Source: Ophelia neglecta
Lineage: Eukaryota
Assembly: GCA_965285935.1 (NCBI GenBank)
Contig: OZ260665.1
Span: 27,714,001 to 27,778,000, forward strand
Length of the DNA stretch: 64,000 nt
Direction of reading: 5' to 3'
Shown: one piece after another, positions 186-61,609 of the stretch
Numbering within the stretch: position 1 is the first letter of the stretch
Layout of the letters: each line of letters opens with the position of its first letter
Program-made: the position numbers and the translations under genes
Notes under the pieces: model-generated
What the model saw: only the letters and a program-made list of their open reading frames with translations
Databases searched by the model: none
What the model was told of the DNA's origin: nothing

Positions 186-3100
186 CTACACCAATAATAC
201 ACCACAGAACTATTAATAATTACAACTTACAGGAGTGTATTAACAATACCAATACACTGAAAACAAATCGTTTGAAGAGTTACATTGACAAGGAACTGGC
301 TAATATTTTTTTTTGGCAATTTTTTTTTTCTGAAGGTAAAGAGAGCTTCAAAGTTCAAACAGAATGGGTGAAAAATATAGTTTATTGTAGCTAGTGTCAA
401 TAAATCTGTTCAGTGGTGGCTTTATATCTGTTAACATTAATATTATACATGTGCAAGATCAATTTTGACCATCATGGAACATACCTCATATTACCCTGCT
501 TACACAGATTTCTTTACAATATATTATAACTGACAAATGATACCAAAGCACACTATTTCAGCTAGAAGGTGTAGACTGGTCAGATTATCAATGTTACCCA
601 CCAGATACTCTATACCAGTACTTACAATAAGAGTAAAGTTGCCAGACGTCTTGCTCGCCTCCCCACTCCCCGAATTGGCTGGGAATCCCTGAATGTCATA
701 GATTGTCACTGCAAACGTCTTGGCCACCTAGGATCACAGAAATCACACATTAGACACATTAAGGAACCTTTATGACAAAACAAACTACAATCTTTGATGA
801 ATAAATTATTTTATTATAATGAGAAAGGGTTTTATAAAAACATCATAAACATAAATACATGTCAACTAGTTTGAATGTACATGTAGAATAAAATGTAATG
901 TATGCAGGCAGAATTTACTGGTAAAAAAACATGTCACAGTAGAAATATTGAATGTGAAATAAAAGTTCAGGCTGTTTAACAGGTTAAAAGCTACTTAGCA
1001 CAATATCGGGTTGATGTACTGGTAAAAAGGTCTAAATAAAATTGGTAAACAACTAAAAGCCAGTGTGCCAAGCAGGAGAACACTGGAAAAATTCTCCCAT
1101 GCAGTGGCTTTTGTGCAAGAACAAGAGGTTTTTCTACAAATAGTACATCCCCCCATCCTCTGTCCCTCTCAGCCCGTTTCCATCAAGACCAGTGGTCCTG
1201 TCCTCTCTCAGCCTGCCCCTACCTCCCTCCCTACCTACCCAGTGTACTAGAGATACCTACCTCCCATCCTGTGTGGGGTTTGACTGTCAGAGAGAAGGAC
1301 TGCTGTCCCCCTGAGATACCTACCTCCTACCCTGGGAGGGGTTTGACTGTCAGAGAGAAGGACTGCTGTCCCCCTGAGATACCTACCTCCTACCCTGGGA
1401 GGGGTTTGACTGTCAGAGAGAAGGACTGCTGTCCCCCTGAGATACCTACCTCCCATCCTGTGTGGGGTTTGACTGTCAGACAGAAGGACTGCTGTCCCCC
1501 TGAGATACCTACCTCCCATTCTGTGTGGGGTTTGACTGTCAGAGAGAAGGATTGCTGCCCCCCTGAGATACCTACCTCCCATCCTGTGTGGGGTTTGACT
1601 GTCAGACAGAAGGACTGCTGTCCCCCTGAGATACCTACCTCCCATCCTGTGTGGGGTTTGACTGTCAGAGAGGACTGCTGTCCCCCTGAGATACCTACCT
1701 CCCATCCTGTGTGGGGTTTGACTGTCAGAGAGAAGGACTGCTGTCCCCCTGAGATACCTACCTCCCATCCTGTGTGGGGTTTGACTGTCAGAGAGAAGGA
1801 CTGCTGTCCCCCTGAGATACCAACCTCCCACCATGTGTGGGGTTTGACTGTCAGAGAGAAGGACTGCTGTCCCCCTGAGATACCTACCTCCCATCCTGTG
1901 TGGGGTTTGACTGTCAGAGAGAAGGACTGCTGTCCCCCTGAGATACCTACCTCCCATTCTGTGTGGGGTTTGACTGTCAGAGAGAAGGACTGCTGTCCCC
2001 TGAGATACCTACCTCCCATCCTGTGTGGGGTTTGACTGTCAGAGAGAAGGACTGCTGTCCCCCTGAGATACCTACCTCCCATCCTGTGTGGGGTTTGACT
2101 GTCAGAGAGAAGGACTGCTGTCCCCCTGAGATACCTACCTCCCATCCTGTGTGGGGTTTGACTGTCAGAGAGAAGGACTGCTGTCCCCCTGAGATACCTA
2201 CCTCCCATCCTGTGTGGGGTTTGACTGTCAGAGAGAAGGACTGCTGTCCCCCTGAGATACCTACCTCCCATCCTGTGTGGGGTTTGACTGTCAGACAGAA
2301 GGACTGCTGTCCCCCTGAGATACCTACCTCCCATCCTGTGTGGGGTTTGACTGTCAGAGAGAAGGGCTGCTGTCCCCCTGAGATACCAACCTCCCATCCT
2401 GTGTGGGGTTTGACTGTCAGAGAGAAGGGCTGCTGTCCCTCTGAGACACCTACCTCCCATCCTGTGTGGGGTTTGACTGTCAGAGAGAAGGACTGCTGTC
2501 CCCCTGAGATACCTACCTCCCATTCTGTGTGGGTTTGACTGTCAGAGAGAAGGACTGCTGTCCCCCTGAGATACCTACCTCCCATCCTGTGTGGGGTTTG
2601 ACTGTCAGAGAGAAGGGCTGCTGTCCCCCTGAGATACCAACCTCCCACCATGTGTGGGGTTTGACTGTCAGAGAGAAGGACTGCTGTCCCCCTGAGATAC
2701 CTACCTCCTACCCTGGGAGGGGTTTGACTGTCAGAGAGAAGGACTGCTGTCCCCCTGAGATACCTACCTCCCATCCTGTGTGGGGTTTGACTGTCAGAGA
2801 GAAGGGCTGCTGTCCCCATGAGATACCTACCTCCCATCCTGTGTGGGGTTTGACTGTCAGAGAGAAGGACTGCTGTCCCCCTGAGATACCTACCTCCCAT
2901 CCTGTGTGGGGTTTGACTGTCAGAGAGAAGGGCTGCTGTCCCCCTGAGATACCAACCTCCCATCCTGTGTGGGGTTTGACTGTCAGAGAGAACGATTGCT
3001 GCCCCCTGAGATACCTACCTCCCATCCTGTGTGGGGTTTGACTGTCAGAGAGAAGGGCTGCTGTCCCTCTGAGATACCTACCTCCCATCCTGTGTGGGGT

Positions 3101-6100
3101 TTGACTGTCAGACAGAAGGACTGCTGTCCCCCTGAGACACCTACCTCCCATCCTGTGTGGGGTTTGACTGTCAGAGAGAAGGACTGCTGTCCCCCTGAGA
3201 TACCTACCTCCCATCCTGTGTGGGGTTTGACTGTCAGAGAGAAGGACTGCTGTCCCCCTGAGATACCTACCTCCCATCCTGTGTGGGGTTTGACTGTCAG
3301 ACAGAAGGACTGCTGTCCCCCTGAGATACATACCTCCCATCCTGTGTGGGGTTTGACTGTCAGAGAGAAGGGCTGCTGTCCCCCTGAGATACCTACCTCC
3401 CATCCTGTGTGGGGTTTGGCTGTCAGAGAGAAGGACTGCTGTCCCCCTGAGATACCTACCTCCCATCCTGTGTGGGGTTTGACTGTCAGAGAGAAGGACT
3501 GCTGTCCCCCTGAGATACCTACCTCCCATCCTGTGTGGGGTTTGACTGTCAGACAGAAGGACTGCTGTCCCCCTGAGATACATACCTCCCATCCTGTGTG
3601 GGGTTTGACTGTCAGAGAGAAGGGCTGCTGTCCCCCTGAGATACCTACCTCCCATCCTGGGAGGGGTTTGACTGTCAGAGAGAAGGACTGCTGTCCCCCT
3701 GAGATACCTACCTCCCATCCTGTGTGGGGTTTGACTGTCAGAGAGAAGGGCTGCTGTCCCCCTGAGATACCTACCTCCCATCCTGTGTGGGGTTTGACTG
3801 TCAGAGAGAAGGGCTGCTGTCCCCCTGAGATACCTACCTCCCATCCTGGGAGGGGTTTGACTGTCAGAGAGAAGGACTGCTGTCCCCCTGAGATACCTAC
3901 CTCCCATCCTGTGTGGGGTTTGACTGTCAGAGAGAAGGACTGCTGTCCCCCTGAGATACCTACCTCCCATCCTGTGTGGGGTTTGACTGTCAGAGAGAAG
4001 GGCTGCTGTCCCCCTGAGATACCTACCTCCCATCCTGTGTGGGGTTTGACTGTCAGAGAGAACGATTGCTGCCCGCCTGTATTGGCTGCCCAGACCAGGA
4101 ACCCCTCGGTTTCTTCCCTTCCTTCAGCATTGTAGAAGCTCACATCGTTGGTCTCCTCTAACTTGCGGTTGGGGTTGTTGGGGCCCATTATACGCCAGCG
4201 CAGCTATGGAGGTGGTGGAAAACAGAATGAGTCAAATGTAATAGAGGCCACTGTCAAATTCCAATGGTAGATATTGGCCTCAGCAATATGGATGAAAATC
4301 AGGCTCAACTGTAATTTCTCTAATTATTCATACACTTTTTTAATTCATACACTTCAGTTTACCATTATTTTAATTTCATTTAAACCTCTAATTATTAGTA
4401 CACTTATAAGATACCCCATTATGGCAACTATAAAAACTAGCAGTCAAAATAGTAATAATTTTGTTTTGCCTCTAATTATCATATTCCTTGAATTTAATAT
4501 AATTTTCGGTGTCTGAAATATTACAGGAATTACAGTATATGCGCTATTCATGGAAGGATTCCATATATCTTGCAAAGTGATATACAGACACCTAGTTCAT
4601 GTATAGATCAAGCATATTTTTTTAACCCTCTTATGAAATTTGACCAAATAAGTTATTTTCTTTTTGAACATTCTTAATTGGCAGCAGATTTTATCTATAT
4701 TGTTATATATAATTTATCTATATTATTATCATGTGTATCATCTTTCTATAATACAGTGAAACCTTTGAATTAAGACCACCAAAGGGACAGAAAAATGCTT
4801 GTCAGATTTTATAGTTGGTCTGTTTGGACAGGTTATTTAACATTGAAAGTATTAATCAAAGGCCTTATATTGGTGGCCTGAACTGACAGGTGGTCTGATT
4901 ATAGAAGTGGTCTTTAAGGCAGGTTTCACTGTACTTCAAACTTGAGTATTTGAGGGACATCCATGCCCACCTAGCCTGTTAATATAGTGTATTAGTTTTG
5001 CCCTACCGTTTGACTGCCGAGCAGGCCTCCACTCCTCTCTATGGTCAGTGTTATCGTGGTGGTGGTGTCAGGGTTAGGGATGGTGACCAGAGTCTGACCC
5101 ACAAATGAGAACTTGCCGTTGGGGTAATCAGACTTGGCGATGGTCACCACGGAGGTCAGCTCCTTACCAAGGACGGCACCACCTGTAACACACACAGAGA
5201 ACTGGATTGGATGTTTGGGAATTTAATCAACTGCACAACTCACTTGCTGGTAATTTACTTTCCAGCAAACAGAAACAAGATATTATTTTGCTGGTGTGTG
5301 ACACCATTTAACATGTGTTTCTAATAATCATACTTTAATTGAGCCAGGCAAGAACATTGTCTGATTCCAGTTACAAAATATAGTAGGATACAAGTACATG
5401 TATATACCTGACTAGCTGGGAGTGATAACCAACCTAAAATACCAACATTCTAACTTAAAACTTGATGGGGGCTTTAACAGATGGCATAATGGAAGGTTTA
5501 ATTCAGTTTCCATAATTGAAGTTGCAATTTCTGGAAGTATTTGAAGTTCTACAATAATAAAACTACACAATTGACAGCAGGAAAACAGATTTTCACCATA
5601 CAGTAGAGTGAAGTCTGTGAATTAAGACCACCAAAGGGACTGGAAAATTCTGGTCAGATTTTGGAGGTGGTCTGTTTAGACAGGTTATTTAACGTTAAAG
5701 GCTATAGAATGGTTTTTATGTTATTGTCCTCAATTGACAGGTGGTCTGATTATAGAGGTGGTCTTTCACTGTATATGTCAAAGACTGACCCACAGGAATA
5801 ATTTGGAACATACAAAAGTATTATGCTAAGATGAACAGGGCGGTCTCACCTCTTGTGTCAGTTAATTTCACCATGAACTGTTCTGTAAATTCCATTTCCA
5901 TGTCGTCTATGATGGTGACATTGATGGTGGACCTTGCCACTCCGTCGGGGATGATGATCTCGCCGGCATACAGGATGTAGTCCACGTTGGAAGTGGCAGA
6001 TATGTCCTCAGCTCGGTATCGGACAGCCACATCACCAAACATCCCCGGTCCTCTGATCACTGGGATGGCTGCCACTCCCACGTCCTCGTACGCTAGGACC

Positions 6101-9100
6101 AGCAATTAAACAACACAAGTGTCATAGAATAATATAAGACTCCCATTTAATAGGTAAAGATCATGACATTAAATATTTGGGGGCAGACAGGATAATGGAG
6201 GAGACAGAATGGGTTATCTGAGTGATTAATTACCAATGAAGTTGAGTGCCTCCTCGGGAAATTCCACAAAGCCCTCAGCGTTGTCGTTTTTATCTATAAC
6301 GATGGTCTTGGCCGCCTGAGGGCCGACTGCTGGGGCCTGGTCCAGTCTTAGACCAGATATCAAGGTGTAGTTGTTTGACCTGGAATAGAATCAGATAAAA
6401 GGTGGTAACTACATATAGTAGAAATACCATATACAATACCCAGACTCTGCAGAGCATTATGGTAGATAGAAACATCATTCTGTATTCTTTAGAATAAATT
6501 ATCATTTAAACATTGCCAAAAAGACAAAATATGGCTCTCCTGATAATCCAAATATTAATCTAGAACCATATATCTCATATACACAACTAAATTCATAGAG
6601 ATTACCACGTGAAGAGTAAGTTGTTTCTATTGAGGGCTTATACAGCAGCTCACTAGGGGGCTTTTGATTTAACATGTCTAACCACTTACACAGGGACCAG
6701 CAGTTCACTAGGGGGCTTTTGATTTACAGTGTCTAACCACTTACACAGGGTACAGCAGTTCACTAGGGGGCTTTTGATTTAACATGTCTAACCACTTACA
6801 CAGGGTACAGCAGTTCACTAGGGGGCTTTTGATTTAACATGTCTAACCACTTACACAGGGTACAGCAGTTCACTAGGGGGCTTTTGATTTAACATGTCTA
6901 ACCACTTAAACAGGGTACAGCAGTTCATTAGGGGCTTTTGATTTACGGTGTTTAACCACTTACACAGGGTACAGCAGTGCACTAGGGGGCTTTTGATTTA
7001 ACATGTCTAACCACTTACACAGGGTACAGCAGTTCTCTAGGGGGCTTTTGATTTACGGTGTTTAACCACTTGCACAGGGTACAGCATTTCATTAGGGGCT
7101 TATGATTTAACATGTCTAACCACTTACACAGGGTACAGCAGTTCACTAGGGGGCTTTTGATTTAACATGTCTAACCACTTACACAGGGTACAGCAGTTCA
7201 TTAGGGGCTTTTGATTTACGGTGTCTAACCACTTACACAGGGTACAGCAGTTCACTAGGGGGCTTTTGATTTACGGTGTTTAACCACTTGCACAGGGTAC
7301 AGCAGTTCATTAGGGGCTTATGATTTAACATGTCTAACCACTTACACAGGGTTCAGCAGTTCACTTGAGGGCTTTTGATTTATCATGTCTTACCACTTAC
7401 ACAGGGTACAGCAGTACACTAGGGGAGGCTTTTGATTTAACATGTCTAACCACTTACACAGGGTACAGCAGTTCACTTGAGGGCTTTTGATTTACGGTGT
7501 CTAACCACTTACACAGGGTACAGCAGTTCACTTGGGGGCTTTTGACTTAACATGTCTAACAACTTACACAGGGTACAGCAGTTCACTAGGGGGCTGTGAT
7601 GTAACATGTCTAACAACTTACACAGGGTACAGCAGTTCCACTGCTGTGATGTTGACAAAGAACCTCTCAGGGCCTTCAGCAATAACGTCATCCACTATGT
7701 TAATAACCACTGTCTGGCGCGCTTGGCCGCTGGAAAACGTCATTGCTCCAGACGATGCCCTGAAGTCAGGCGGGTCAGAGAACGAGGTGGCAGTCCCGGA
7801 GGAGGTAGTGTATAGAACACGGACCTGTCCGTCTAGGCCGTAATTCCGGACTACTGGTACTGTCACCTGAAAATAACAATTAAACAGATGTCAACTTCAC
7901 TCTAATAAATGTCTGGGAAGAAACTGGGCAGAAAAACATTAATTACTTAATAGGATTAATAATGATTAATTATATACCAAACTAAGGAGAGGTCCACTTA
8001 CTGATGTATGATCTTCCTGTACTACTATCTCTGATGGCTGAGTGAATTCAAACAGGCCATGTGGGTAGTCACTGGCCACAATGGTAATGTCTACCGTCCG
8101 CGCAGACATGTCGATGGTGGCTCCTCCATTGGCAGAAGTCAGCTCTAGTGTATACTTCTGGCGCAGCTCAGGAATGCTGTCGTCTCCTGCCTGCAGGGAC
8201 AGAGATATAGTAGTACATAGTAAGTATAAGTAGTAAGTAGTATAGTAATCTAATAAACACACCTTTTCTGGAGTGTAAATGGTAAAGTCTTGAATAAATA
8301 TTGAAGTGTGCTATTATATTTCAATATAGTTTTCTGGATTGAAAGTTTTCAGTTAAAGAGTTAAATTGCTCATAACCCATCTGTCGTACAGGACTAGTGT
8401 ACTGACCGGTATAACAATGTAAGCCTCACCTTCATTACCCAGCAGTAGTGTACTGACCTGTATGACAATGTAAGCCTCCCCTTCATTACCCAGCAGTAGT
8501 GTACTGACCTGTATGACAATGTAAGCCTCCCCTTCATTACCCAGCAGTAGTGTACTGACCTGTATGACAATGTAAGCCTCCCCTTCATTACCCAGCAGTA
8601 GTGTACTGACCTGTATAACAATGTAAGCCTCCCCTTCATTACCCAGCAGTAGTGTACTGACCTGTATGACAATGTAAGCCTCCCCTTCATTACCCAGCAG
8701 TAGTGTACTGACCTGTATGACAATGTAAGCCTCCCCTTCATTACCCAGCAGTAGTGTACTGACCTGTATGACAATGTAAGCCTCCCCTTCATTACCCAGC
8801 AGTAGTGTACTGACCTGTATGACAATGTAAGCCTCCCCTTCATTACCCAGCAGTAGTGTACTGACCTGTATGACAATGTAAGCCTCCCCTTCATTAACCA
8901 GCAGTAGTGTACTGACCTGTATGACAATGTAAGCCTCTCCCTGCATGTCCTCAAACACCACCTCCCCAGAGGTCTGGAGGAAGGCTGTCAGGTCTCTCTT
9001 CAGGATCTGCCAAGTCACCTTCACCTCTCCATACACCCCAGGCGCTCGCGCCAACTGGATCTCAGCCCTACACAGATAAGTATAACATCAGCATGGGGAA

Positions 9101-12100
9101 TATAAACATACAGTACAGGAAATTATGTCTGCCATACAACAGGGGCTTACTAGCACAATCTGGATCTCAGATCTGACAAATCTTAATTATAGACACTTTG
9201 CTTACCTGTGTCACTACTAATGGAATCGTATCCAGGAGGTAAAAGGTTTAAAGAAAACTAACTCTTATATATGGAAATTATCAAAAACTAACTGCACATG
9301 AACTGATCCCTTAATGTCTTGATTAAGACTCGAGACTGGTACCTTTAGCTCCCCGAGAGATCAAACTTACATTCCGTCGTATCCGGCAGTGGGCTCCCCC
9401 ATAACCAGTCTACGATAGCCGGGGGTGATGGACACGGTGCCACCGGCCCCTGGGTCAGGCAGGATTACCACGGTGGCATCCCCCTCTGTGGGGCTGATTA
9501 TAGCGTTGTTGTCAACGGCGACCAGGGAGACCGTGAATGTCTCCTGGCCCTCCAGCTGGTTGTCTGGCTTGGTTACTAAGGTGATCTGTTTACGGGACTC
9601 TCCCTACAAACAGGTCAGAAAGAGAAAAATATTTACGAATCTCAGCAAAAGATATTTTTATACCAAGCATTGTTTGGATTAAATGTTCTTTTCAACAATG
9701 TGAATTATTATACTAGTGTACTGAAGTCTTACTACTCATGGACCAAAACCGGATTGTGCCCATTGGGGGTTCATTGAAGTCATACTACTTACAGGCCCAA
9801 ACCTGACCGCCCATGAAGGGTTCATTGTATCCATACTACTTACAGACCCAAACCTGACTGTGCCCATGAGGGGTTCATTAAATCTATACTACTAACAGGC
9901 CCAAACATGACTGTGCCCATGAGGGGTTCATTGAATCCATACTACTTACAGGCCCAAACCTGACTGTGCCCATGAGGGGCTCATTGAAGTCATACTACTT
10001 ATAGGCCCAAACCTGACTGTGCCCATGAGGGGCTCATTGAGGTCATACTACTTACAGGCCCAAACCTGACTGTGCCCATGAGGGGCTCATTGAAGTCATA
10101 CTACTTACAGCCCAAACCTGACTGTGCCCATGAGGGGTTCATTGAATCCATACTACTTACAGGCCCAAACCTGACTGCTCATGAGGGGTTCATTGAATCT
10201 ATACTACTAACAGGCCCAAACCTTACTGTGCCCATGAGGGGCTCATTGAAGTCATACTACTTACAGGCCCAAACCTGACTGTGCCCATGAGGGGCTCATT
10301 GAAGTCATACTACTTACAGGCCCAAACCTGACTGTGCCCATGAGGGGTTCATTGAATCCATACTACTTACAGGCCCAAACCTGACTGCTCATGAGGGGTT
10401 CATTGAATCTATACTACTAACAGGCCCAAACCTGACTGTGCCCATGAGGGGCTCATTGAATCCATACTACTTACAGGCCCAAACCGGACTGTGCCCATGA
10501 GGGGTTCATTGAAGTCATACACTGCGTCTGCACCGAGTCTCCAGTCGACATTGACCACTCCGTCTGTCCCTCGACGTACTATGGTCAAGGTCACTCGCCC
10601 GCTGGGGTCAAACTCTATCTGGGACTCCCTAACTGTCACCTGGCAATGGATAGACTTGTAAATTGAATGATTACATGATCTGGTACTATCAAACAGTAGA
10701 CTGTATTGTGCATTTATAAATGAAATTCACTCTACAATTGGAGTATAGAATACAATTGACTTCAATCATTTCCTTAACAAGGAAGATCTATTCAGCACTT
10801 TACCTTTCTTAATCCCTGAGGTTGCATTAGAAATAGAAAAATCAAGAAATTCTTATTAGTCTTACTATATTCATTCACAAAAACATAATCTCCATTTCAA
10901 GTTTGGCTTGGTTTTGAGAATAATTAATGTTGCTTCTTAACTAATGCTTTCATCTGCTTTTATCCACATGTAAATGACAAATTTTTCACTTTTTATATTC
11001 TTTGAACCTTAATGTGTTTACATTTGAAGGAGCTACCTGAATTGTCTCAAAGGAGAACACTCCGTTGGGGGAGTCGTTACGTAGGATTCCTACACGGACA
11101 GTTTGGTCAGAACCAATCGAGGCTCCTCCAGAGGTCACTCGGATCAACTGGACATCAAATGTCTGCAAAACACATAACATGTCAGAATACAGTAAACTTG
11201 TCATTATACCATGTCTAGGGCTTAATTACTTTCCTCAATTCCATTTGTTGACATTCTGATAATTACTGTTGTGAAGCTTGGTAATTATCATTATCTTGTT
11301 TGAAGGACACCTACATGTATATTGATCTATATGTACAATACCCAAGCCTCCAGGCTGCAAGGCTCACAAAGGAGCACAGGAGTAAGGTAAAAAGAATTGG
11401 AGTTCTTTAAAGTAGAGATACCTCACAGGGACTGTCAGACAATTCTGATGTTGATGACACCACATCATTGTGAACCAGGTGGCCTTACTGTCTTCAGCCT
11501 GGAATTTGGCTCAGCTATACTATAGTAACTCCTTTGTGAAGCCATTTTATCTCCTCTTTAATGAACCTCCCATCCTTTTTTTACCTTAAAGTGCCCCTGT
11601 ATGGCTACGAGTAGCATTTCTAGCCCGGTGGGAGACAATCAGCAGAGATCAGGTCTCAGATGATGTGATGAGCCTACTATACCTGGAGGTCCTCAGGCAG
11701 AGTGTCGTCCACTATAGTGATGACAATGAAGGCTTCCTGCTGACCCTCCTTGAACCTGACTATACCTCCGGAGGGGGTGAAGTCGTCCGTGTCCGCCTCG
11801 CGGGGACTGGCCTGCCAGGAGACCTCCACCTCCCCAAACAGGCCCACCGTACGGCTCAGCTTCAGTCTCACCTGCCCTATACCCTCGTACACGTCTACAC
11901 GGTTCTCTATGTTCTGGAATAACAAGGGGAGCACAAGCATCTCACTACAGAGATTGTCCAGAAACTCGCACATAACATCAAGCCTCTAGCAGCAAAGCTC
12001 TTACAGTAACATGTTGCATATATGGAATATTTAAAAAGGAGCCTGAATTGGAGATCATATGTCAACCTGAATAGTGTCTAGTTTAAAACTGGGTGTGTTT

Positions 12101-15100: not shown

Positions 15101-18100
15101 TGGTGAAAACAAGGGTGGCATTTAAGTGATTGGGACAAATTACACCTGGGACATAGAGTAGTTTTAAAACTAAACTGAGTTGTGGCTTAGCCTAAATCAA
15201 ATAGCTACTGGTACCATATAATGTAAGTAGTTATATGAAAAAAATGTCCAGTGCTAGAGCATACCTTTCCCTCCACAGGGAATATGTCCAGAGCCCCCTG
15301 GTGGGCTCCCGAGGCAGTCCACCTCACCACCACCCTACCACTGGAGCCCCTCCGACGGACCACGTTGATCTGAACCAGGTTATCTGCTCCAGGAGTCTCC
15401 TCCTCTCTACGCTCCAATGAATCCTGAAATACAATGGTATATACAACCATCTGACCTCCCGAGATATGTAGGCCTTAGTCCTCTGTTAAACACCTCTGGA
15501 CTACCTTCATCAAATTCAAAATGTCACCATTTTAGTTACTTGTAACTTTAGATGTCCAAGTTAAGGTATATATCACTATTAAATTGTGACTATGAACTCG
15601 TTATTTAATAGTTTTCCTTATAAAACCCCAAACCAATTTTCTCAGTCGCTTCCTTTCCCTAAATCATGCGAATATGACAGGATCCTTTTCAGACAATATC
15701 TAAACAACATACATCGGCAAATTCTACAATGCCGTGTCCATCATCATTTGACAGGATGTGGACTGAGACTTCATGACGTGGCCCTAGCTCCGCCCCTTGT
15801 CTGGGATTGGTCAGTTCTACAAAGAACGTCTCCGTGTCCTCGGCATTGAGATCATCCAGGATTGTCACAGAAGTGGTCAGCTCTGTCTGACCCGGAACAA
15901 AGGTCAAGGTCACCGATCTGTGTAGAGTAGAACAAAAATTAAACCAAGAAGAGAATAAATTTAGAATATTTGAATAGATAATTCCTTGCTTCATATACAT
16001 TTAAGTCTCTGGGGCACATGCCTATACACCTATATAATTCACAGTTTTTTTTACTAAAACATATTAGATTTGTAGCATGATAGTCAATTTTCATGATTAT
16101 AATATTGGGCTACCTTGGAATGTAGTCGCTGTCTCCTAGCAAATTGACCTCTCGGACGCTAAACTGTAGCACTCCAGACGAGTTGTATAAGGGTGCAGTC
16201 ACCATGGCAACGTGGTGACCAGCTGACTGTTCCACTTCCAGGGGATGCATGTCCATAGCCTGCGACCCCTGCCAGGTCATGTTGAACTGACCCATGGACT
16301 CATCCCAGGCGTACACAGCACTGGGGGAGCTTTTGGAGGCTATCACCAGGTAGGCTGACCAATAGGAAACAGTAACTCTTATATGGACCAATAGGAAACA
16401 GTACCTCATATATGGACCAATAGGAAACAGTAACTCATATATGGACCAATAGGAAACAGTAACTCATATATGGACTGGCAATTCAATTATAATAAGGAGC
16501 TTCAGCATTAACTTATATGTTATAATAGATGCACTATTGGAAACATTTATGACAAACTGCCTAAAATCTGTTCTTGTTATAAGCATTGATAGGCTGATAT
16601 CAAATATTCCTTTACCTACTGAAGCCTAATGTACAGGTAATGCATGTTGCTATTATAGGTGTTCTCCAAAGGATGTGAGACAGGTTTGGAGGATTTTGTT
16701 TGTTTTTCTTTTAGATTAGGTTATTTTTGGCCTTTCTTTGTAACTTACCCACACTGTTGTCCACGCTGAAGACACCTACATGTTCTATGACATACCCACA
16801 CCGTTGTCCATGTTGAAGACCATCATGTTCTATGACTTACCCACACCGTTGTCCACGTTGTCAACCCCCCATGTTCTATGACTTACCCACACCGTTGTCC
16901 ACGTTGTCAACCCCCCATGTTCTATGACTTACCCACACCGTTGTCAACGTTGTAGACCCCCCATGTTCTATGACTTACCCACACCGTTGTCAACGTTGTA
17001 GACCCCCATGTTCTATGACTTACCCATGCCGTTGTCCATGTTGAAGACTCCCACATGCTCTATACCATTGCCCCTGATCTTCTGGATGGAGGTCCACAAC
17101 TGGGTTAGACTGTTCCAGCTGTATATCTAGCATATCAATACAAACAAAAGAAATACTTTAAGACTAGAGCTTTGAAATGTGAATAAATGTATCTCTGGTA
17201 TGGGTATGTTTATATGTGGTTAACAGTACAAAACAGTTTCAAAACATGTCAATTTCCATTTTATTTTCATTAAGTTGGCCAGATGAAGTTTATTTTTATT
17301 AGCTGAGAGTAGATAAGTCGGGAGACTTACATTAAGATCCTGTTGGGTGTTTCCGATGTTGTCCTGACCGTTGGCTATCACCAGATACGAGTCAGTACGG
17401 GTCTTAAAGAACGTGAGATCCACTGCGCCGTGGGTGTCCACTTGCTGGTGAATGGTTAAATGGTCATCAGAGTCCAACTTGTAGATTATAGACCTGGAAA
17501 TGTATCAAGAAGTGTATAGGAAAAAAACTGGATACCCTACCAATGATATCCCACAGAAGATGAGATCTTGATTCTGAGGTATATTTACATAATTTATATT
17601 TAACTGGTCTCATTCTCAATTCCAAGCCATGTTAATGGGAGATGAAAAACTTGCAATGGTTTTTTTGACCAAGTAGTGGGATATGTTGTAGTGCATTTTT
17701 TACCTCTGACTTTAAGACTATCAATAGTGTCAAAAGGTATCTTCAAAGTACCTGTCCACAACAAAATTTCCAGTGATATCATTCTGACAGTTTGACCTTA
17801 AAACCAGAACTCACTTTCTTACCTCAATACCAGTACTTACTTGAGCTCATATGCGATGCTTTCTGACCTCAATACCAGTACTTACTTGAGTTCATATGCC
17901 CTGCTCTCTGAGTCAAAATGGTTGGCAATGGCAACAAAGATGATGCCATCCACTTCCAGGCTGTCCACTGCAATGGCTCCCTTGGTTGCTAGGAACTGGA
18001 TTGGTAGAGAGCCAAACTTGTTGTTTGTGGCCTCCCATTGGTAGACGTATGACATGACCCCAGTTTGACCTTGGTTGTTCTGGTAGTTAGCAATCACCAG

Positions 18101-21100
18101 GAAAGTTTTATCACCCTTTTTGAAAAATGCTCCGTCTGTAGCCCCTATAGTGTTGAGATCCTGGACCTGGTAGATAGACAGACCATCATTACTTGATTAT
18201 CTCTACAATAGTTCTGCAGAAAAAATACCATTTTGTCAGTTTTGTGGCAATCATGAAAATTGTGAAACTGAATCAATTACAAACTGACATAGTAAATTAG
18301 TGTTATAAAATAACTAAAAACTAGGCCAATGCTGTCGGGGGGCCGACAGCAAGGGGTATATCCGCGAATGCGTGCAATAATCAAATGGGAAACATGGCAT
18401 AAGGGGAGGTAGTGAATATGGTAGCTTTTAGTTGGCACAAAAGATAACGACCTTAACTAAATTTTGTTCAGGTCATTAATAAAGTTAAACTAGTTAACTT
18501 ATTACACAGTACTAGTTAACTTATTACACAGATTGTAGTAGGTTCTATTTGACCTCAATAACAATGCAGGTCATTCTTAAAGTTGGTGTCATATGACCTC
18601 AATAATAATGCAAAACGACCCTAACTAATTTTTTTTCAGGTCATTAATAAAGTGAACTTATTTGTAGGTTCCATAAGATCTCAATAATAATGCAAAACGA
18701 CCTTAACTAAATTTTTTTCAGGTCATTAATAAAGTTAACTAGTTAACTTATTACACACATTGTAGTAGGTTCCATATGACCTCAATAATAATGAAAAACT
18801 GCCTTAACAATTTTTTTTCAGGTCATTAATAAAGTTAACTAGTTAACTTATTACAAATTACTAGTTAACTTGTTACACAGATTGTAATAGCTCCTATATA
18901 ACCTCAATAATAAGGCAGGCCATTAATAAAGTTGGTTCCATATGACCTCAGGAATAATGCAAAACCACCTAAACTAATTTTTTTTCAGGTCATTAATAAA
19001 GTTAACTAGTTAATTTATTACACAGATTGTATATACAAAGTCCACCTCTATAATCAGACCACCTGCCTATTCAAACCACTTTTATAAGAACCATGATGTA
19101 TACTTTCAATGTTAAATAACCTGTCTAAACAGACCACCTCCGAAATCAGACCAGTATTTCCCAGTCCCTTCGGTGGTCTTAATTCACAGGTTTCACTGTA
19201 GTAATTACATGAATCATGACACAAAACTTCAAGCCAATATCATCTATAGTTTGGAATATATGATAGAAAATGTGTTTTTGAAATAATTAATTAATTATTT
19301 TGACTAATTAATAATTATCAGAAATTCACCAGAATAATTACAGGTCTTCCTCTCAATAAGGTCTATGGCTGTGTCAAATTAGAAAAAGATGTATCAAATA
19401 TTTTTTGTGTTATTGCAGAAAAAGTGTTTCTGACGTAATTAATTAATTGTTTTAACTAATTAATAATTATTGGATTTTCACCAGAATCTAATCAGTTCCT
19501 CCTCTCAATAAGGTCTATGGCTGTGTTGAATTTGAAAAAGATGTACGTAATGGTTTTTGAGTTATCGCGTTAACGACTAAAATCTGCGGCGGCGGCGCTA
19601 CTGAAAACATAATATCCGCATTTCGCGGATATAATAAAGTAAATAACTTGTTTCAATAGAAAACATCAAACATAAAGTTTTGCTTGTTTTTTGTGAAAGT
19701 TCGGACTAGTGCACAGCCATTTGGGCTAGTAATGGACCAACTTCACATGCCGGAATAAACAAGTAGCTTGGAAAGTTTTTGCCAAAGACTGCCAAGTCTT
19801 ATTTTAGATAAAATATGGTAGTCTGGCAATCTTACCACAGTGAGAGGCCCATTCTCCTGTACCAGGTAGAGTCTGGACTTGGTAGCATGGCGGTTGTAGG
19901 AGCCGTGGTTGGCTATTATCAGGTAAGTCTGACTGCCTATTGTCATACTGGCAGCCCCCTTGGCACCATCTGTCTCTATGGTCTGGGTTAGAAATCACAT
20001 CATTGGTAACTTTTATTATGGACTACCTTTAAAGGCTTTTAGTCATCAAAGTTCTTAAAATATCTAGTTTACTTAACTGAGCAGAATGACTTATTAAACA
20101 TTGCACAATAAATACCTTATTATTTGCACAAAAAATTAAACTCAAATATGTTGAATGGACAATAATGCAAGAACACATAGTATAATATTAAATAATTCTG
20201 TTTAATATTTTGATGTTGGTATATGAATACAAAAAATAATATTTCAGTCATTAGTATATTGGACGACTTGAGTTAAGAATGGTGCTGCCACTACCTGGAC
20301 TTGTACCAGTGATCCCTGCCACCTATAGAGTATGGAGGGGTTGATAACACCAGTGGTTGATACTGAGGCCCCGTCGCTACCCACTGTGGTTACCATTGGA
20401 CCCACCACCCTGTCATTAAGTAGTATGGCATAGCTAAGCCCGTGGGCTGAGAACCCCTGCCACCTACTGACTTCTAGATTACCAATCTGCAAGACAAATA
20501 AAACAAAACTCATATTAGCATAATGAAACAATATGATAATAGATAATTATTCTAATTTCTTTTTAATTTAAATATTACTGATTTTATTGCACAAATAATT
20601 TATTGACAGGTAAAACAGTTGATTACAATATCAAAAATAGCCCTGGAGTAACTTACTCACTGTTGGATAGTATATTGATCTGGTATTCATTGAAAATGAG
20701 AAGAATTTACTTAATAAATTTACCCTGCTATGGCCAATTTCACCAATTTGGTGACACTTACCTGTTGCACAGTCGACAGGGTGAACCGATTCCCTGGGAT
20801 GGCCTTTGCTGTGCCATCACTGGTTACCATGTCAACCGAGATCCGGTCCATTGAACCCTGTGACCTTGTGACTGTAAAGTAGATAGTCCCCGCTGTCTCT
20901 TCAACATTAATAGATGTGTCACTGAAATTAAATATCACATTGTTATTGAACATCCTGAGTTTGATGTTTTGTTACGATAGAAATCCACCAGACAGATTAT
21001 GTACCTTGATCCTGCAGGCAGTATTTCCAGCATGCCATAGGGAGCGTCATTTCTCTCTATGATAACGTAGAGGGAGTTAGCCGGTCCCAGATCAGCACCG

Positions 21101-36100: not shown

Positions 36101-39100
36101 GGACACGCTGTAGTCCAGACCGTAGGTGGCACTCCCTGAGCCAACCTCAAACTTCACTGTCACCTGCCACAAATATGTTAACTTCACTTCTGTCATTATA
36201 TACCCATGATCTTTAACAACAATGTACCAACAAACTTCTATATTAGCTTTCACAAATTAAGTTGTAAGTAGTGCTCTGCTTTTAAATAGTTGTTTTGTTT
36301 TTATTTCAAATTGAAGGCTTTTATCAATTAAATAGTCATGTTTGGGATTTCCTTGGAGTATTAGCTTTCAGAAAAATATATAGAGACATTCGAAGTCATG
36401 GTTATCAAGAAGTGTTTGCCAGTTTTCACCATGAGAAGCCTTTAAAGTCTTACTAATAAAAGAAACATTTTGACAAAGTAATGTTCAGAAGCTCAAGCTG
36501 GGCTACAAACAATGGATTTTTACAGATTGGTTTTATTCCCTGCACAGTATTGAGATGACTATATAAGATGAGTGTTTACCATTGCCAGGTTGACAGTTAT
36601 AACTTACAGATCCAAAGGCTCCTCCTGACCTGACCACACTGGTCAGCACCCCAGTGAACTCCTCACTGACGGTTATAGCGTCGTTGGACAGCTGTAGAAC
36701 GCCGCTGGGGTTGTCATTGGCTGATATAATGATCTGACTGTAACACTCTGTGACAGGACCCAGGCGAGGTGAATCCTGAACTGTTAACATACAGGCTTAG
36801 AGCGTAGTGATATGCCCCAGACTGGACTTATTTCAATGTATTACAAATTTATGACCTTTTTGATGACATCACTTACACACCCTATAAGCTATTAAACATG
36901 ACTTTGTAAAACGAAGTTAGCCCATCACATTGCTCAATTTGTGCAGATCAAATAGCATTACATAATACTGTTTGTGCAGTCTATTACTACCATTTTATAG
37001 GCCTGACTAAGGAATTGGAAAAGAAATTTAATTCACTTCTCATTGGAATTCTATGAATCATACCAGACTTTGGTTTCTATCAGATAAGAACCAAGAAACT
37101 AGACAGCATTTAGGCAATCATAGAAAAAATTGGCTAAACTTAGAGCAAATTTTACAACAGCATTCTGCACAGCCCTTTTAAGATGACAACCTGAAAATCC
37201 AAATTGAGCCTTTTGAAGACCAACTTTTAGTTTTCTGTTAATAACCGAACCAGCCTAAAGCTACGGACTAATCAGAAATACACAAACCAATTCTGGACTG
37301 TTCCCCCTGTATGAGATAGGCGCCCGTCAGCCGTACAAAGAAAGTCTCGTCCACCTCAGGCTCCAAGTCGTCTCTGACGGTGACATTGAAGGCGGCGGTG
37401 GTGTTCCCAGGGCCTATGACCACAGACCCTGTGGAGTTGGAGTAGTCCAGGGGGCCAGCCCTCGTCCCTCCCGGCAGGTAGGGGTAGCTCTCCCAGGGGC
37501 GCAGTGTGGAGTAGTCTACTCGCACTGTGCCAAAGGTCCCCGAGTTAGCCACTCTCTCAATGGTCACTGCTACTTCTGATAGAATAAAGATATGCTGGTA
37601 ATCATCCAGTTATGTTACATTCCTAATCAAAGTATACATTGCCTCCACTAAACGGTCAATATTTAAATAATGAAGTAGGCAAAATCAGTAGAAAGGAATT
37701 GTATGCTTTTGTGTGGTGGTTTTTCATTATTTAATCAAAGAAGGAAAAATTCCCAGGTACAAACATGGAAGCACAGACTTTAAAATCCGGAAGTGCATAT
37801 CCCTCTATTAGTTTACCTTGGAATGTCTCTTCCACATAGATGGGCCTGTTGTCGGCTGCTATAACAAACACCCCGTAGGGATCGTCATTCCCTATGACGG
37901 TTATGCTGGCCTGCAGCTTGCCTTCTTCTCCCAAAGAGCCCTTCACAGAGAATAAGTTTGTTCATTGAAACATCATTATTAAGAGTTAAAGCAGAGTGTT
38001 AGATTTTCGCTGATATTTGAACCATTCTAAACTCTTTATTTCCCAATTTCAAATAACTTGTTTTAATTGTTTCAAGTTTGCTAAAATTGAAGATTTTTAA
38101 AAGTGCTCTATGACAAACAATATTGAAAAGTGAGTGTTGCAAACTGCTTTAAATTTAAGGATACTTTTTTATTTAGCAAAAGAAAAAATCTCCAAGGCAA
38201 ATCCACAAGATAAAGTTGTTTTCAAAGAACCTTGCATTGCAGTAGGCATGCCATATAGATGCAAACATGATGGTTTTATTGACATGTACCTGTGAGACTT
38301 GTAGTATGTACAGAAATCAATCATTACCAGTGAGACTTGTAGCATGTATACGAATCAAGCCCTACCAGTGAGACTAGTAGTATATACATGAATCAAGCCC
38401 TACCAGAGACTTGTAGTATGTTTATGAATCAAGCCCTACCAGTGAGTCTAGTAGTATATACATGAATAAAGCCATACCAGTGAGACAAGTAGTATATACA
38501 TGAATAAAGCCACACCAGTGAGACAAGTAGTATATACATGAATCACGCCCTACCAGTGAGACTTGTAGCAGTTGGACATGGTATATCTCATCCAGCTCAG
38601 GCATGAGGTCGTCTCGGATGCGCAGGACAAACTCCGAACTCTGCTGACCTGTGTCAAAGGTCAGATAACCAAAAGATTCCATGATGTCATCGTCTGTGTC
38701 ATCAGTGACCTGCCAGGTCACATTCACCTGGCCGATAGCTCCACCTTCTCTCACAACCTACAGTGTCGACATGAGACATGTGCCAGTTAACTTAGAAAGT
38801 GCTCAATGACCAAACAGCTTAGGACCATGCAATTATATTCATTTGATGATATCCAGATTGAAGATGACAACAGAGTTCAATGTACTAACATTTTAATTTA
38901 ATTTTTGCTACCAAACTGCTAGCCTATATATACAATATCAACATGTCACTTAATTTTATGGACTCTGCTACGAGTAGCTGTATTTTTACAGTTTTACAGT
39001 TAGACCTGACCAATAAATTTAGACTGAGACCCATGTTTAAGTGAAGGGCCTAATACATTGTATCAACGATTTGATAACTAATTTTGTCAAGCTGGCTGGT

Positions 39101-48248: not shown

Positions 48249-48560
48249 TTGGGTGTCAGAGCAGACAAAACCCAAATCAGAGCCAGGACTGACTTTCACA
48301 GCTGCGGAGAATACTAATAAGAGACAGTTTACGATAAAAATCTAAGGAACTTGAGTGAGTGACATTATTGGATATTGCATTATAGGTAAAGCTTTCTGAT
48401 AGCATGTTTTAAGCGAAAGCTTCATTCAAGTGGCCATTTGTGGTAACTTAAAAAGTGGACATTTTTACTGTTTTTTTCACTGTTTTTTTCTGGGGAGGAA
48501 GCTGCAAGTGATAAACTATAAGCCTAATTCTATGACTAAAGCTTGCCCGGTGTTGCTAAT

Positions 48561-49191
48561 ATGGGTTCACTGAAAGGTACGCTGTTCTGTCTGGTGGTGT
48601 TTGTGGTGACTGTGACTTCGAGAAAGTCCCGAGACTCTAGTTACCACCAGGCGGGGTATGCTGCATCAAGGAGTAGAGAGACCAGCAATAGCTGTACAGT
48701 ATACAAGGAGGGGTGTCAGTATCAGCTCACCCTGGCCAGCACCGACTGCATGTCACAAGACTCACCCATGACCCCCGACTTCAATCATATCATCAAATCA
48801 AAAACGCAACATGAGAAGGAAAAAAATCCTGAGGACGGAGTTACACTCAAGAAATTTGACGAACTGGAAAACAAGCTGACCAAACTGATGGAGGGGCTGT
48901 CGATTCGATCTCTGCGCCATATTCGGCAAATAAAAACGGATCTAAGAACAATGTCTAACACCATGAACCTGTTGAAAATGAAGGCTGGAGGAAAAAAGGG
49001 AAAAAATCGCATGCAGTGTCCCGAAGAGTTTGTGTCGGTGGGAACGTGGAGCTCATGTTACAGATTCTCCACCTTCAACGCCACCTGGGCAGAGGCCAGG
49101 GAATACTGCTCGGCGTTTGGCTCCAACTTGGTGTCCCTGGATACGATGAAAGAGGCCTATATCCTGGATTACCTCATCAAGTCTGACCCTG
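48561..49191 (+). CDS. Secreted C-type lectin domain protein, coding exon 1 (signal peptide, Cys motif, coiled coil, N-half of CTLD)
   Basis: ATG 48561, hydrophobic leader LFCLVVFVVTVT; CPEEF..SCYRF..TWAEAREYC...LVSL CTLD start; donor CCTG|gtaagt phase 1. Confidence 0.9.
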
Positions 49192-52100
49192 GTAAGTGTG
49201 CCGAGTCTTGTCCAAGTCAGTTTTAATAGGTCATTTTTCATTTTCTACTCTAAGGCTTACTGAAATGGCCTCACACATTTTTTCACAAATCCATTTAAGG
49301 TAATAGGCCCAAAATTTACTGAACAGATAGCATATTAAAGTGCTCAATTTGTTGCCTGACATTATGATAACACTGAAATCCGTACATTACATTACTGATT
49401 TGAAAGTGTCATTATATAGCTATGGCTACATCACGGAACAATGAAGACATCACTGAAATTGCTTTTTATTTTGTTCAGGCTTGAGAGGAAAAACTAACCT
49501 ATATGTATAATGTATTAATATAGGATCATATACTTTTTTATACATACACTGGCCCAGCTATGCCTGTTGGTTTTCTAATTGTAAATTTACTACACAAATG
49601 GCCAAATGAACAGTTAGGTTTTCATTGTCTTCATTTCCTGACAAGGGAACACTCTTTAAGACGAACAAGAGTTGTATAAATGATTATAAGACAGGGTGGA
49701 TGCAGAAATCATGGAGAGCTGCTTATTTAACTGTTTATTGACAGTTTCCAATGAGAAGCAATATCTGCATAAATTATCACAAATTGCAGAAGTTTAAAAA
49801 ATGGATTAAACTGTAAAATTAAACATTAATTTCAATGTTGAGACGCCAACAATGGTTCCTTAAAAACTGGAGCAATTGAGTTTCCGATTCATCAAATCAG
49901 TGATCTAACAAGCTGAGGAAAGAAATCCCCATACTACTTATTACGGTATATGCTATTTATGGGTATATTTACAGAGCGCACTCAGACATTTATGTCAAAA
50001 TTAAGGGATCAGTCAAGTGGTCCAATCTCAGCACTTCATTTTGTCCTAGTTGCACTATTTTTCTGGTGTATTTATACATCCTGAGTTGTGTGATATGTCA
50101 ACTAATGTAGCAGTGAATCAGCTAATAATTAATTTGAAAACTAGGGACACGATACTAGTAGGTTGTGTTAATCATTAAGGCTCCCCTTTTAACCACCAAG
50201 GTTGATGAGCAGGGGAATCATCTACAAACTATACTTTAGGTCCAGTTTCAATCATATGAACACAATAAAATGTGTGAAGTCCAGTTTGGTCAGTTTGTGA
50301 TCTTCTACCATTCAAACACATTAAAAATCATTTTAAAAAAACAATAAAAAGTAAAAAAAAATCAAAACTTAACATCATTCTATTATATAACCCAGAGTAA
50401 ACATTAATATATTTAGAGAGTCTCATCAGGAGCAGGGGCAGAAGGCACAATTCTCAGACGGAAAAGCCACAATTTTAAACTAATAAGCAATACAAATTGT
50501 ATTAATATCTTTTGAATCATAGTAATTTGAGGCACCATGGTAAAAATCAACAGCAGACCCTCCAATACTAAATATCTATATAATTCTGATACCATTACTA
50601 CATGTTAATAAAGCAAAGTTAAAGACATTAAATGGCCCATATGGTGCTTATGAAACTTTAAACCCCAAAAATACAAATCCCATGGTAAGAATTTCAGGTT
50701 GAATATGAAGAGAATCCATTATCAACAGGTAGAAAGGCAAGAGCTGCACTTCAAAAAAAGTTGACTGAGGATAGACTCTGATGGAGAATCAGTAATACCA
50801 TCAACTTCACTTCACTCCGCAAAGTGGGACATAAGTTGATAAATTAGAAAAAGTTAATACATATTTTTCATACATTTTACAGTAAAAAAGAAAAGGGCTG
50901 GAAAGTGGATTAACAATTTTCTATTCTTCCAAGGTGCTGATGTTCACATTTTATTGCATGTTTTCATTCATCAATCTGCACACATTCTCAGCACAAGCCA
51001 TGTCGAGAGACAAGGAGTGGCCACAATTTATTTCTAGAGGGTGATGTTGGTGAACCAGGCCCACCAGACCAATTTTCATCCCCATGGAGGTAGCCACTGA
51101 TTGGTCTGCAGAGGTTTAGGTGGCCATTTTAAGTGGTAGGAGACCACTTGATCAGCATCAGAATAGTCACCCACCAATCTGAGCATGCAAAGTAGCTCCT
51201 CAAATGATATCCAAAGTGCTGGGAATCCTATTTCCAATTGAAAAATCATTAAACTGCCAGCTGCCGGTAACAATGGTGATTTAGTACCAAAAACTAGGGC
51301 TATAGGGACAGATTAATTCCATGTTATTTTGATGCAGGCTGTTTAGCTTGAATTTGTGATGAATAGGCTATTTTAGCTACTTCAGCTTTTGTGTTTATCT
51401 CTCATTTGAATACACAAATAGTTTGAAATTTATTCTTTTACTATTCTTCACCACTTTTTTCTTTCAATGAACAAACACAATTTTTTTTTGCATCTGTCGG
51501 GCCGGAAGCCCCTATGTGGGTGTTTATCTAAATCATGACTGACCTAACCTGACCTAAATAGGGTTTTCCATTACAGCAAGGCTGCATTCAAGGAAGAAAA
51601 ACATTTGATTAAGATAACGTCAACATTTTAACAACCCTGTGTCTCTGCATAGATACGTCACATGCAATGGGTTTGAATGACAAACACTGATTTGTGCTAT
51701 TAATTTCAACTGAAAGAGTCGAAACCAAACTTTTCTTTGAGATAAAATATCGTTAATGTCAAAATCAAATCTGTGCCATGAATAATCAGGAGGGTACTTA
51801 TATTTACCTACGAGGGAAGCCCTAACACAGAATTTTATATGCTTACCAGAAGGCAAGTCAAAATGCCCTGAGAACATTACATATGAGCGGGTGGTTCCTT
51901 ACAAGGCCTGCTCCTTTGGTCAACTGGTGCAGGGTCACCAGCCAGCCAATTGACACTGACCATTTATATGGACCTGCCTTACCCCAGGGCGAACGCCGAG
52001 TGTGCCGAGTACAGTGCGTTACACAGTTGAAAAAACAGGCACATTTGAATCATGGGCATTTAAGTTATGGATTTTTTTAATCATAGGGAAGAGCCACGTC

Positions 52101-61370: not shown

Positions 61371-61609
61371 CCTACCAAGGCCCCAAAGGATGGTGGACCA
61401 GCGGTAACTACATTGTACGCAACAGGAAGTGGATGTGGACTTCCAGACACCACATCATCCCCATCAACTTCTCACGCTGGGCTCCCAACGAACCCGACGC
61501 TCGGTCAACCATGCACTGCATGATTCTGTACAAGGACGCTGCATATCACTGGCACGACGCAATGTGCACCGACAATCACACATTCATTTGTGAAATCGAA
61601 ATAATCTAA
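61371..61609 (+). CDS. Secreted C-type lectin domain protein, coding exon 2 (C-half of CTLD, EPD/WHD, stop)
   Basis: ttcttttcag|CC; WWTSG..WMW..RWAPNEPD..HC..WHDAMC..FICE; phase matches exon 1, giving 289 aa across a 12.2 kb intron. Confidence 0.9.

Follow-up and report, generated by a model that had tools for sequence, protein, structure and literature searches.

An ADGRV1-like gene on the minus strand of the window (the whole stretch of 64,000 nucleotides that was analyzed) carries a 63-bp minisatellite that spans one of its splice donors. The array is a "mirage" minisatellite, a known repeat class. We consider it probable that it is a tandemly amplified exon-intron boundary, one of 11 in the gene, and that its most upstream donor (first intron base 4026) is used almost exclusively. 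With donor 4026 used in this way, the normal protein would carry no insert.

Anatomy of the array and its host gene

Judged by its sequence, the host gene is ADGRV1-like, in agreement with the first-pass annotation, as Calx-beta, EPTP, and 7TM matches are all collinear with the homologues. It spans at least +97,700 to -20,083 in window coordinates. Calx-beta (PF03160) was found in 8 of 17 scanned exon frames and EAR/EPTP repeats (PF03736) at 17220-17504 and 17882-18196, while residues 2223-2531 of the ADGRV1-like protein P0017 (Tubulanus polymorphus XP_074651666.1; PF00002 at 2223-2471) align at window coordinates -16,542 to -19,384. ADGRV1/GPR98/VLGR1 proteins such as P0017 and P0044 (Mya arenaria) share the same collinear Calx-beta repeats, EPTP repeats, and secretin-family 7TM region, with 30-76% identity per exon block. 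They differ from this gene in that the repeat peptide is absent from all fetched homologues and the intron at the array seems absent in most relatives. The array lies between two exons that were numbered 48 and 49 within the window by the first-pass annotation, and its parts are as follows (a slash marks the splice boundary).

4027..4203, minus strand: ADGRV1-like coding exon, 177 nt, phase 0-0, 59 aa, aligning to P0017 958-1014; its last 53 nt are the repeat template
4018..4029, minus strand: authentic (most upstream) donor GAG/GTAGGT, first intron base 4026, placed by sequence and by homologue continuity 4027->727
1250..4079, minus strand: 63-bp donor-spanning minisatellite, the exon copy plus 44 intronic units (TRF, unit parsing)
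3019..4026, minus strand: 16 units in frame without a stop; extra donors 3963, 3900, and onward to 3018 (potential +21 to +336 aa)
2957..3018, minus strand: unit 17, 62 nt, exon-type sequence, -1 frameshift leading to TGA 2985-2983
1260..2956, minus strand: 28 distal donors, all past the stop
2578-2517, 2012-1951, and 1698-1639, minus strand: distal irregular units, -1, -1, and -3, respectively
1575-1513, minus strand: partly exon-type unit 40
728..1249, minus strand: unique 3' part of the intron, 522 nt, ending in the acceptor at 728
626..727, minus strand: next coding exon, 102 nt, phase 0-0, 34 aa, aligning to P0017 1014-1048

TRF reports a period of 63, 45.0 copies, and 95% matches. Parsing yielded 45 GAG/GT donors from 4026 to 1260, separated by 44 units (40 of 63 nt, three of 62 nt, and one of 60 nt). 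Each unit consists of the first 10 intron bases and the last 53 exon bases and thus spans the real exon-intron boundary, and the GT is kept in 44/44 extra donor copies. The 95% matches, the variants common to distant units (16 distinct ones), and an exon copy that differs at 4 sites at the array edge indicate concerted evolution with a divergent boundary copy. Among the donor arrays of the gene, this one is the largest and among the most uniform.

A HMMER search matched 40 proteins, of which 21 were inspected and 14 aligned. Among the 14, 13 are continuous and insert-free across the 4027->727 junction. In P0001, the closest relative (67% identity), the alignment breaks at the junction codon and different residues follow. 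Seven inspected proteins were left out of the alignment; P0009, P0012, P0017, P0021, and P0025 are continuous through the junction in their HMMER matches, with P0017 aligning to both exons gap-free, while P0024 and P0027 end or diverge ahead of it. A word-index search with the 59-aa exon gave no match.

Reading frame, variation, and predicted structure

The exon frame runs without a stop from 4203 to past donor 3018, closing at the TGA of unit 17. Consequently, splicing to the acceptor at 727 would keep the frame open for 17 of the 45 donors (the real one and 16 extra), and the other 28 would give stop-containing joins; stop codons are present in 3 distal units. Little explanation is needed for the open frame: in-frame exon makes up 53 of the 63 unit bases, and of 562 10-mers in the window that start with GT, 507 would keep such a unit open. 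The first-pass annotation had described the 16 extra in-frame donors (16 x 63 nt, +336 aa), and our frame parsing agrees. It had given them all as GAG/gtaggt, which is true of 14, identical in sequence to the real donor, the other two (3585, 3333) being GAG/GTATGT. The repeat peptide that it quoted is exact in 4 of the 16 units, the other 12 encoding variants, and three of its four frameshifting units (~3003, 2531, and 2000) are each -1, whereas the fourth (~1671) is a 3-nt in-frame deletion. The exon-type variant it placed mid-array (~2995) is present as unit 17 and fits an exchange with the exon copy; unit 40 holds a partial second one.

The 16 in-frame units contain 8 distinct amino-acid-changing variants (including S>P, S>C, G>C, and G>E) and 0 silent ones. 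In all 40 63-nt units, the count is 12 changing to 4 silent, which matches the 47:16 site ratio, and the three open arrays of the gene (this one and two others, 39 and 51 bp) pool to 17 changing and 5 silent, with a silent share of 0.26 expected under neutrality (P=0.73). Thus, no purifying selection on the unit peptide was detected in the in-frame tract or the pooled arrays, at low power. Between the exon copy and the array consensus there are 4 differences, every one silent (Fisher P=0.002 vs 8:0 within the array), two of them 37 and 40 nt ahead of the donor; exon-vs-consensus differences are 7 silent to 0 changing in large arrays with 3n periods vs 4:4 in large non-3n arrays (P=0.077). These all-silent differences could reflect past coding use. 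They run counter to the neutral-looking variation inside the in-frame tract.

In the predicted model of homologue P0021, the junction maps to E162/V163, a loop between strands 147-155 and 165-176 (pLDDT 93-96), and the model resembles Calx-beta/CBD structures (2dpk, E 1.7e-7; 3ead). By this model, the insertion point is inside a predicted Calx-beta sandwich and not in an inter-domain linker, so each inserted unit would duplicate a core strand plus loop. A single-sequence fold of the exon plus three units was uninformative (mean pLDDT 40.8). Of 9 homologues examined for the domain-length pattern, 3 fitted it (143 aa each), and the first-donor form of the gene has 144 by hand count.

Sister arrays and known mirages

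The gene has 11 donor arrays among ~95 donors (93 exon blocks from tblastn and at least 2 further exons found by eye), or about 1 donor in 9, including the following.

6641..7638, minus strand: 54/55-bp sister array across a donor, with 17 extra copies; a stop follows the donor immediately
8395..8946, minus strand: 51-bp sister array across a donor, with 10 extra copies, each in frame and open
9722..10520, minus strand: sister donor-spanning array, 53 bp, 14 extra copies, frameshifting
16743..17063, minus strand: sister donor-spanning array, 46 bp, 6 extra copies, frameshifting
17814..17911, minus strand: 45-bp sister duplication of a donor, with 1 extra copy; a stop follows the donor immediately
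38287..38568, minus strand: degenerate donor-spanning array, 38 bp, ~7.5 copies

Arrays thus recur at independent junctions, i.e., the 11 in this gene and 7 analyzed in neighboring genes, in addition to acceptor types. Periods divisible by three are not in excess of one third, either in the gene (4/11, P=0.53) or with the seven neighboring-gene arrays included (4/18, P=0.90). The 18 arrays were picked by eye, and four donor-like ones of uncertain frame or gene were omitted (downstream, 33 and 37 bp; upstream, 51 and 48 bp); with these included, the hand count is 7/22, still one third. A heuristic donor-array screen of 664 kb was abandoned, as its coding model had been trained on this gene and it missed the 63-bp array (score 2.8, cut-off 3). 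In 400 kb taken from other C8 stretches, it picked up just 4 candidates, and its 5/16 3n periods, which are at chance level, carry little weight.

The 63-bp unit falls inside the 10-160 bp mirage range given in PMC3087553. According to PMC3087553 and PMC3902484, the amphioxus mirages (Adh3, the globins BflGb6/BflGb9, troponin C, and PGBD5) likewise consist of boundary-spanning tandem units with splice signals, occur as donor and acceptor types with several per gene, and exhibit concerted evolution with divergent boundary copies; they are reported there not to disturb splicing. The amphioxus globin mirages have 3-6 units, whereas the present array has 45 copies with 16 units in frame, and its host is lophotrochozoan-like by its nearest named homologues. 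The 37-bp VNTR in human F7 intron 7 (PMC1557585) is similar in that its first unit spans the exon/intron junction and identical pseudo-donors follow the authentic one, but it has 4 exon and 33 intron bases in 5-9 copies, vs 53 and 10 in 45 copies here with a period divisible by three. The same paper describes F7, lamin B2, and PDGFA as using the authentic donor only, in F7 even with in-frame pseudo-donors. In IFI6 (6-16) intron 2 and CBS intron 13, as cited in PMC1557585, the donor is reiterated 15-25 times and splicing uses the authentic donor as well as the two pseudo-donors closest to it, with no ladder beyond two extra donors reported. IFI6 and CBS thus provide a precedent for a short leak, i.e., for use of the first one or two extra donors. 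Our literature search, mainly of open-access papers, found no report of mirages in annelids or molluscs and none of invertebrate ADGRV1 isoforms.

Use of the donors

Under the explanation that we prefer, the array would have begun as a local duplication across the donor, whose copies were then multiplied and reshuffled through unequal exchange or conversion, with the exon copy taking part at times (units 17 and 40), and the in-frame state of the 63-bp array would be a one-in-three outcome of unit length. Selection of the first donor would follow from exon definition or from scanning in the 5'-to-3' direction, for which human F7 is the tested case; the extra copies would then be nearly harmless and could persist. 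Rare use of donors beyond unit 17 would create stop-containing mRNA that is likely cleared by nonsense-mediated decay. The scanning rule comes from tests in mammalian cells, which tells against a firm transfer to this animal.

An alternative that we regard as rather unlikely is a leaky mirage, in which donors 3963 and 3900 are used noticeably and the resulting +21 and +42 aa forms escape decay, being tolerated as an unselected loop insertion. The identity of these donors, their open frame, the IFI6 and CBS precedent (PMC1557585), and the location of the junction in a predicted loop rather than mid-strand all favor this, but F7, lamin B2, PDGFA, and amphioxus use the first donor only (PMC1557585, PMC3087553, and PMC3902484), and the insert is absent in 13/14 aligned relatives.

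It is very unlikely that several of the 16 open donors are spliced such that repeat number grades ADGRV1 ectodomains with duplicated Calx-beta strand-loop units. If they were, then here and in the 39- and 51-bp open arrays, splice-junction repeats of introns would have become a source of variable protein, and the silent differences would be a trace of coding use. That such a repeat-number-controlled ladder of up to 16 longer receptor isoforms is selected to tune ectodomain length is highly improbable. The 16 open in-frame donors, the size and uniformity of the array, and the all-silent exon-vs-consensus differences speak for selection, while the 8:0 variants inside the in-frame tract, the unremarkable share of 3n periods, the loss of frame at unit 17 with stop codons in distal units, an insertion point inside a predicted domain instead of between domains, and the absence of an insert in 13/14 aligned relatives all argue against it. 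Moreover, 1,185-nt exons would have to prevail over an identical donor giving a 177-nt exon. The VNTR-controlled isoform series proposed by the first-pass annotation finds no support in the sequence analysis and is opposed by the known arrays that use the first one to three donors (PMC1557585), the 10 other arrays without a 3n excess, the neutral-looking variation, and the predicted Calx-beta insertion point.

It is hardly credible that the array arose as an artefact or that the assembly has grossly inflated it, even though a rough hand estimate from one DNA sample gives ~20-30 copies per haploid genome vs 45 assembled, contig depth being no true copy number. The head-to-tail joint 4079->4027 has a depth of 121, 305, and 342 vs 12-33 in the adjacent unique exon in three runs of one sample, which is possibly the source of the assembly. 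This joint depth, ~10x single-copy depth in 3/3 runs, indicates that the array is multi-copy DNA in one sequenced sample, and together with the variants common to distant units it led us to reject a pure artefact. There is next to no chance that the host intron owes its origin to the array, through tandem duplication of an AG/GT proto-splice site (Rogers-type intron gain), a reading that we rejected largely by anatomy: although the spliced junction is AG/GT and 13/14 aligned relatives seem to be without an intron there, the units carry intron-start bases instead of the next exon's start, the 3' 522 nt and acceptor are unique sequence, and the break in P0001 at the same codon suggests that the intron likely predates the array. 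We also rejected a plus-strand protein because of the 63-bp period, of which the long plus-strand frames are probably a by-product.

As a tandemly amplified boundary with probable first-donor use, the array illustrates a described repeat class cleanly and on a large scale; what it adds is mainly the mirage density in this animal. If the ladder were real, it would provide a route from an intronic repeat to variable receptor length. Since the 16 in-frame donors would escape nonsense-mediated decay and the following 28 would not, the array would make a good natural test of first-donor scanning in an invertebrate.

Array anatomy and reading frame

The first-pass annotation described a 63-bp array with 16 extra in-frame donors in the ADGRV1-like gene, and this was confirmed both by Tandem Repeats Finder (TRF; 1250-4079, period 63, 45 copies, 95% matches) and by parsing of the minus strand, where 45 GAG/GT donors extend from 4026 to 1260. 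The units measure 63 nt in 40 cases, 62 nt in three, and 60 nt in one, and are composed of 10 intron-start bases together with the 53 terminal bases of the 177-nt exon at 4203-4027. A duplication of this boundary, amplified and shuffled, underlies the array. Splicing to the acceptor at 727 would give an open, in-frame mRNA from the authentic donor (4026) and from each of the next 16, with a maximum gain of 336 amino acids. Unit 17 (62 nt) shifts the frame to a TGA at 2985-2983; thus, the remaining 28 donors carry a stop. The open frame itself is expected, since 507 of the 562 GT-starting 10-mers from the window would keep such a 63-nt unit open. Some details of the original description did require amendment. 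On the minus strand, the indel near 1671, previously listed as a frameshift, is actually -3 and in frame, while two of the 16 extra donors read GTATGT instead of the GTAGGT ascribed to all of them. The quoted repeat peptide is encoded exactly by only 4 of the 16 units. The exon-type bases present in units 17 and 40 do fit the proposal that the exon copy and the array have exchanged sequence. Each 63-bp unit also contains a pyrimidine-rich AG at position 40 that may serve as an acceptor and, with the next donor, may delimit a 23-nt frameshifting micro-exon.

Depth at the head-to-tail array joint was 121, 305, and 342 in three DNA runs of one sample (possibly the assembly's source), versus 12-33 in unique sequence, indicating that the 63-bp repeat is real DNA; these depths do not fix the array copy number. 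At 5991-6298 and 6366-6600, this sample contains two haplotypes, one identical to the window and the other differing by 23 substitutions and 10 gap letters in 300 nt, so heterozygosity is high. At ~4740-4935 and 5600-5770, the window holds two copies of a short dispersed element that is present in very high copy number (contig depth 10^5-10^6) and, judged by its ends, resembles a MITE.

The host gene and its splice junction

Calx-beta and EPTP matches were found in 8 and 2 of the 17 scanned exon frames, respectively, and ADGRV1-like proteins from one nemertean and two molluscs are collinear with the gene from ~+87,000 to -20,083, a span that includes the 7TM region. These data place the host animal no more closely than lophotrochozoan-like. 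Residues 958-1014 and 1014-1048 of P0017, the Tubulanus polymorphus protein (XP_074651666.1), cover both flanking exons without a gap, so 4027 to 727 is the conserved junction. Among 14 aligned short relatives, whose records were taken as genomic from their read-through ends, 13 cross the junction without an insert, and the closest (P0001, 67% identity) breaks at the same codon. The intron at 728-4026 looks lineage-specific, as those 13 continue in one frame through the junction codon and do break at flanking intron positions, P0001 alone breaking here. None of the fetched homologues contains the repeat peptide twice in one protein. A ~36-kb gap between ADGRV1 exon blocks (39,470 to about 75,600) harbors a plus-strand C-type lectin gene, probably secreted:

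48540-49226, plus strand, C-type lectin frame (Lectin_C, E 0.0083)
61334-61609, plus strand, C-type lectin frame (Lectin_C, E 2.9e-5)

Modeling of the homologue P0021 from a 22-row alignment gave a beta-sandwich (residues 71-170 at pLDDT 93-97) that matches calcium-binding Calx-beta domains (2dpk, E 1.7e-7; 3ead). In this model, the splice junction maps to E162, which is invariant and lies in the loop that connects strands 147-155 and 165-176. By this model, each included unit would duplicate a strand and loop within the domain and would not serve as an inter-domain spacer. A single unit or a pair might loop out, while many would likely disturb the fold. A single-sequence fold of the exon plus three units was uninformative.

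Donor choice at the array

Dominance of the first donor is the probable outcome at this array, with the most upstream site (4026) presumably winning over the pseudo-donors. The human F7 37-bp VNTR has the same layout, and 50 constructs showed identical pseudo-donors, in-frame ones included, to be functional yet unused (PMC1557585). The introduction of that paper describes use of the authentic donor only for lamin B2 and PDGFA. For amphioxus mirages, minisatellites whose units span an exon-intron boundary, PMC3087553 and PMC3902484 report undisturbed splicing and variable length. A noticeable leak producing +21/+42 amino acid forms from the extra donors is unlikely by comparison; its precedents, listed in the introduction of PMC1557585, are IFI6 and CBS, in which two extra donors are used.

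Sister arrays and the unit peptide

A selected ladder of longer isoforms is very improbable. Among 93 tblastn exon blocks and two or more further exons found by eye, the host gene contains 11 donor-spanning arrays, with periods of 39, 41, 38, 45, 46, 53, 51, 54/55, 63, 41-43, and 58 bp; it also has several acceptor-side arrays. Periods divisible by three account for 4/11 (P=0.53 against one third), 4/18 with neighboring-gene arrays added (P=0.90), and 7/22 by hand count with four uncertain arrays added. In-frame arrays therefore occur about as often as chance predicts. Three arrays (39, 51, and 63 bp) are open over many units.

Other arrays of the host gene (coordinates below 0 or above 64,000 are flanking contig)
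8395-8946, 51-bp donor array, 10 open donors, in frame
90730-91579 (contig about 27,804,700-27,805,600), 39-bp donor array, 9 open donors, in frame
-684 to -1206, -15925 to -16524 (L009, L010), and 16357-16475, acceptor-side arrays of 60, 30, and 29 bp

Of these acceptor-side arrays, the one with a 30-bp period sits between two copies of an acceptor and exon start in the 7TM region. Plus-strand neighboring genes at -96,300 to -24,800 (flanking loci L011-L018) contain many donor and acceptor mirages, including a 44-bp acceptor unit in about 115 copies. One has RCC1-like repeats and is presumably HERC-like; another we take to be acyl-CoA-synthetase/FATP-like.

The unit peptide shows no sign of constraint in a test of low power. 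Distinct variants among the 16 in-frame units comprise 8 amino acid-changing and 0 silent, those among all 40 63-nt units 12 and 4 (in agreement with the 47:16 site ratio), and those of the three open arrays pooled 17 and 5, where neutrality predicts 0.26 of variants to be silent (P=0.73). The exon copy points the other way, as every one of its four differences from the array consensus is silent, unlike the within-array pattern (P=0.002); silent:changing counts are 7:0 in large arrays with periods divisible by three versus 4:4 in other large arrays (P=0.077). The four silent sites fall within five codons at the array edge (4063-4075), with zero in the next twelve codons, and may stem from a different or earlier exon allele, from bases at the unit start that derive partly from the intron, or from past coding use. 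A motif similar to the unit start occurs in the flank near 1165-1185.

The 63-bp array belongs to the already known mirage class, reports of which came from amphioxus only in the literature searched. While ordinary in class, it offers an unusually favorable natural experiment on donor choice, since decay would spare 16 copies but not the other 28.
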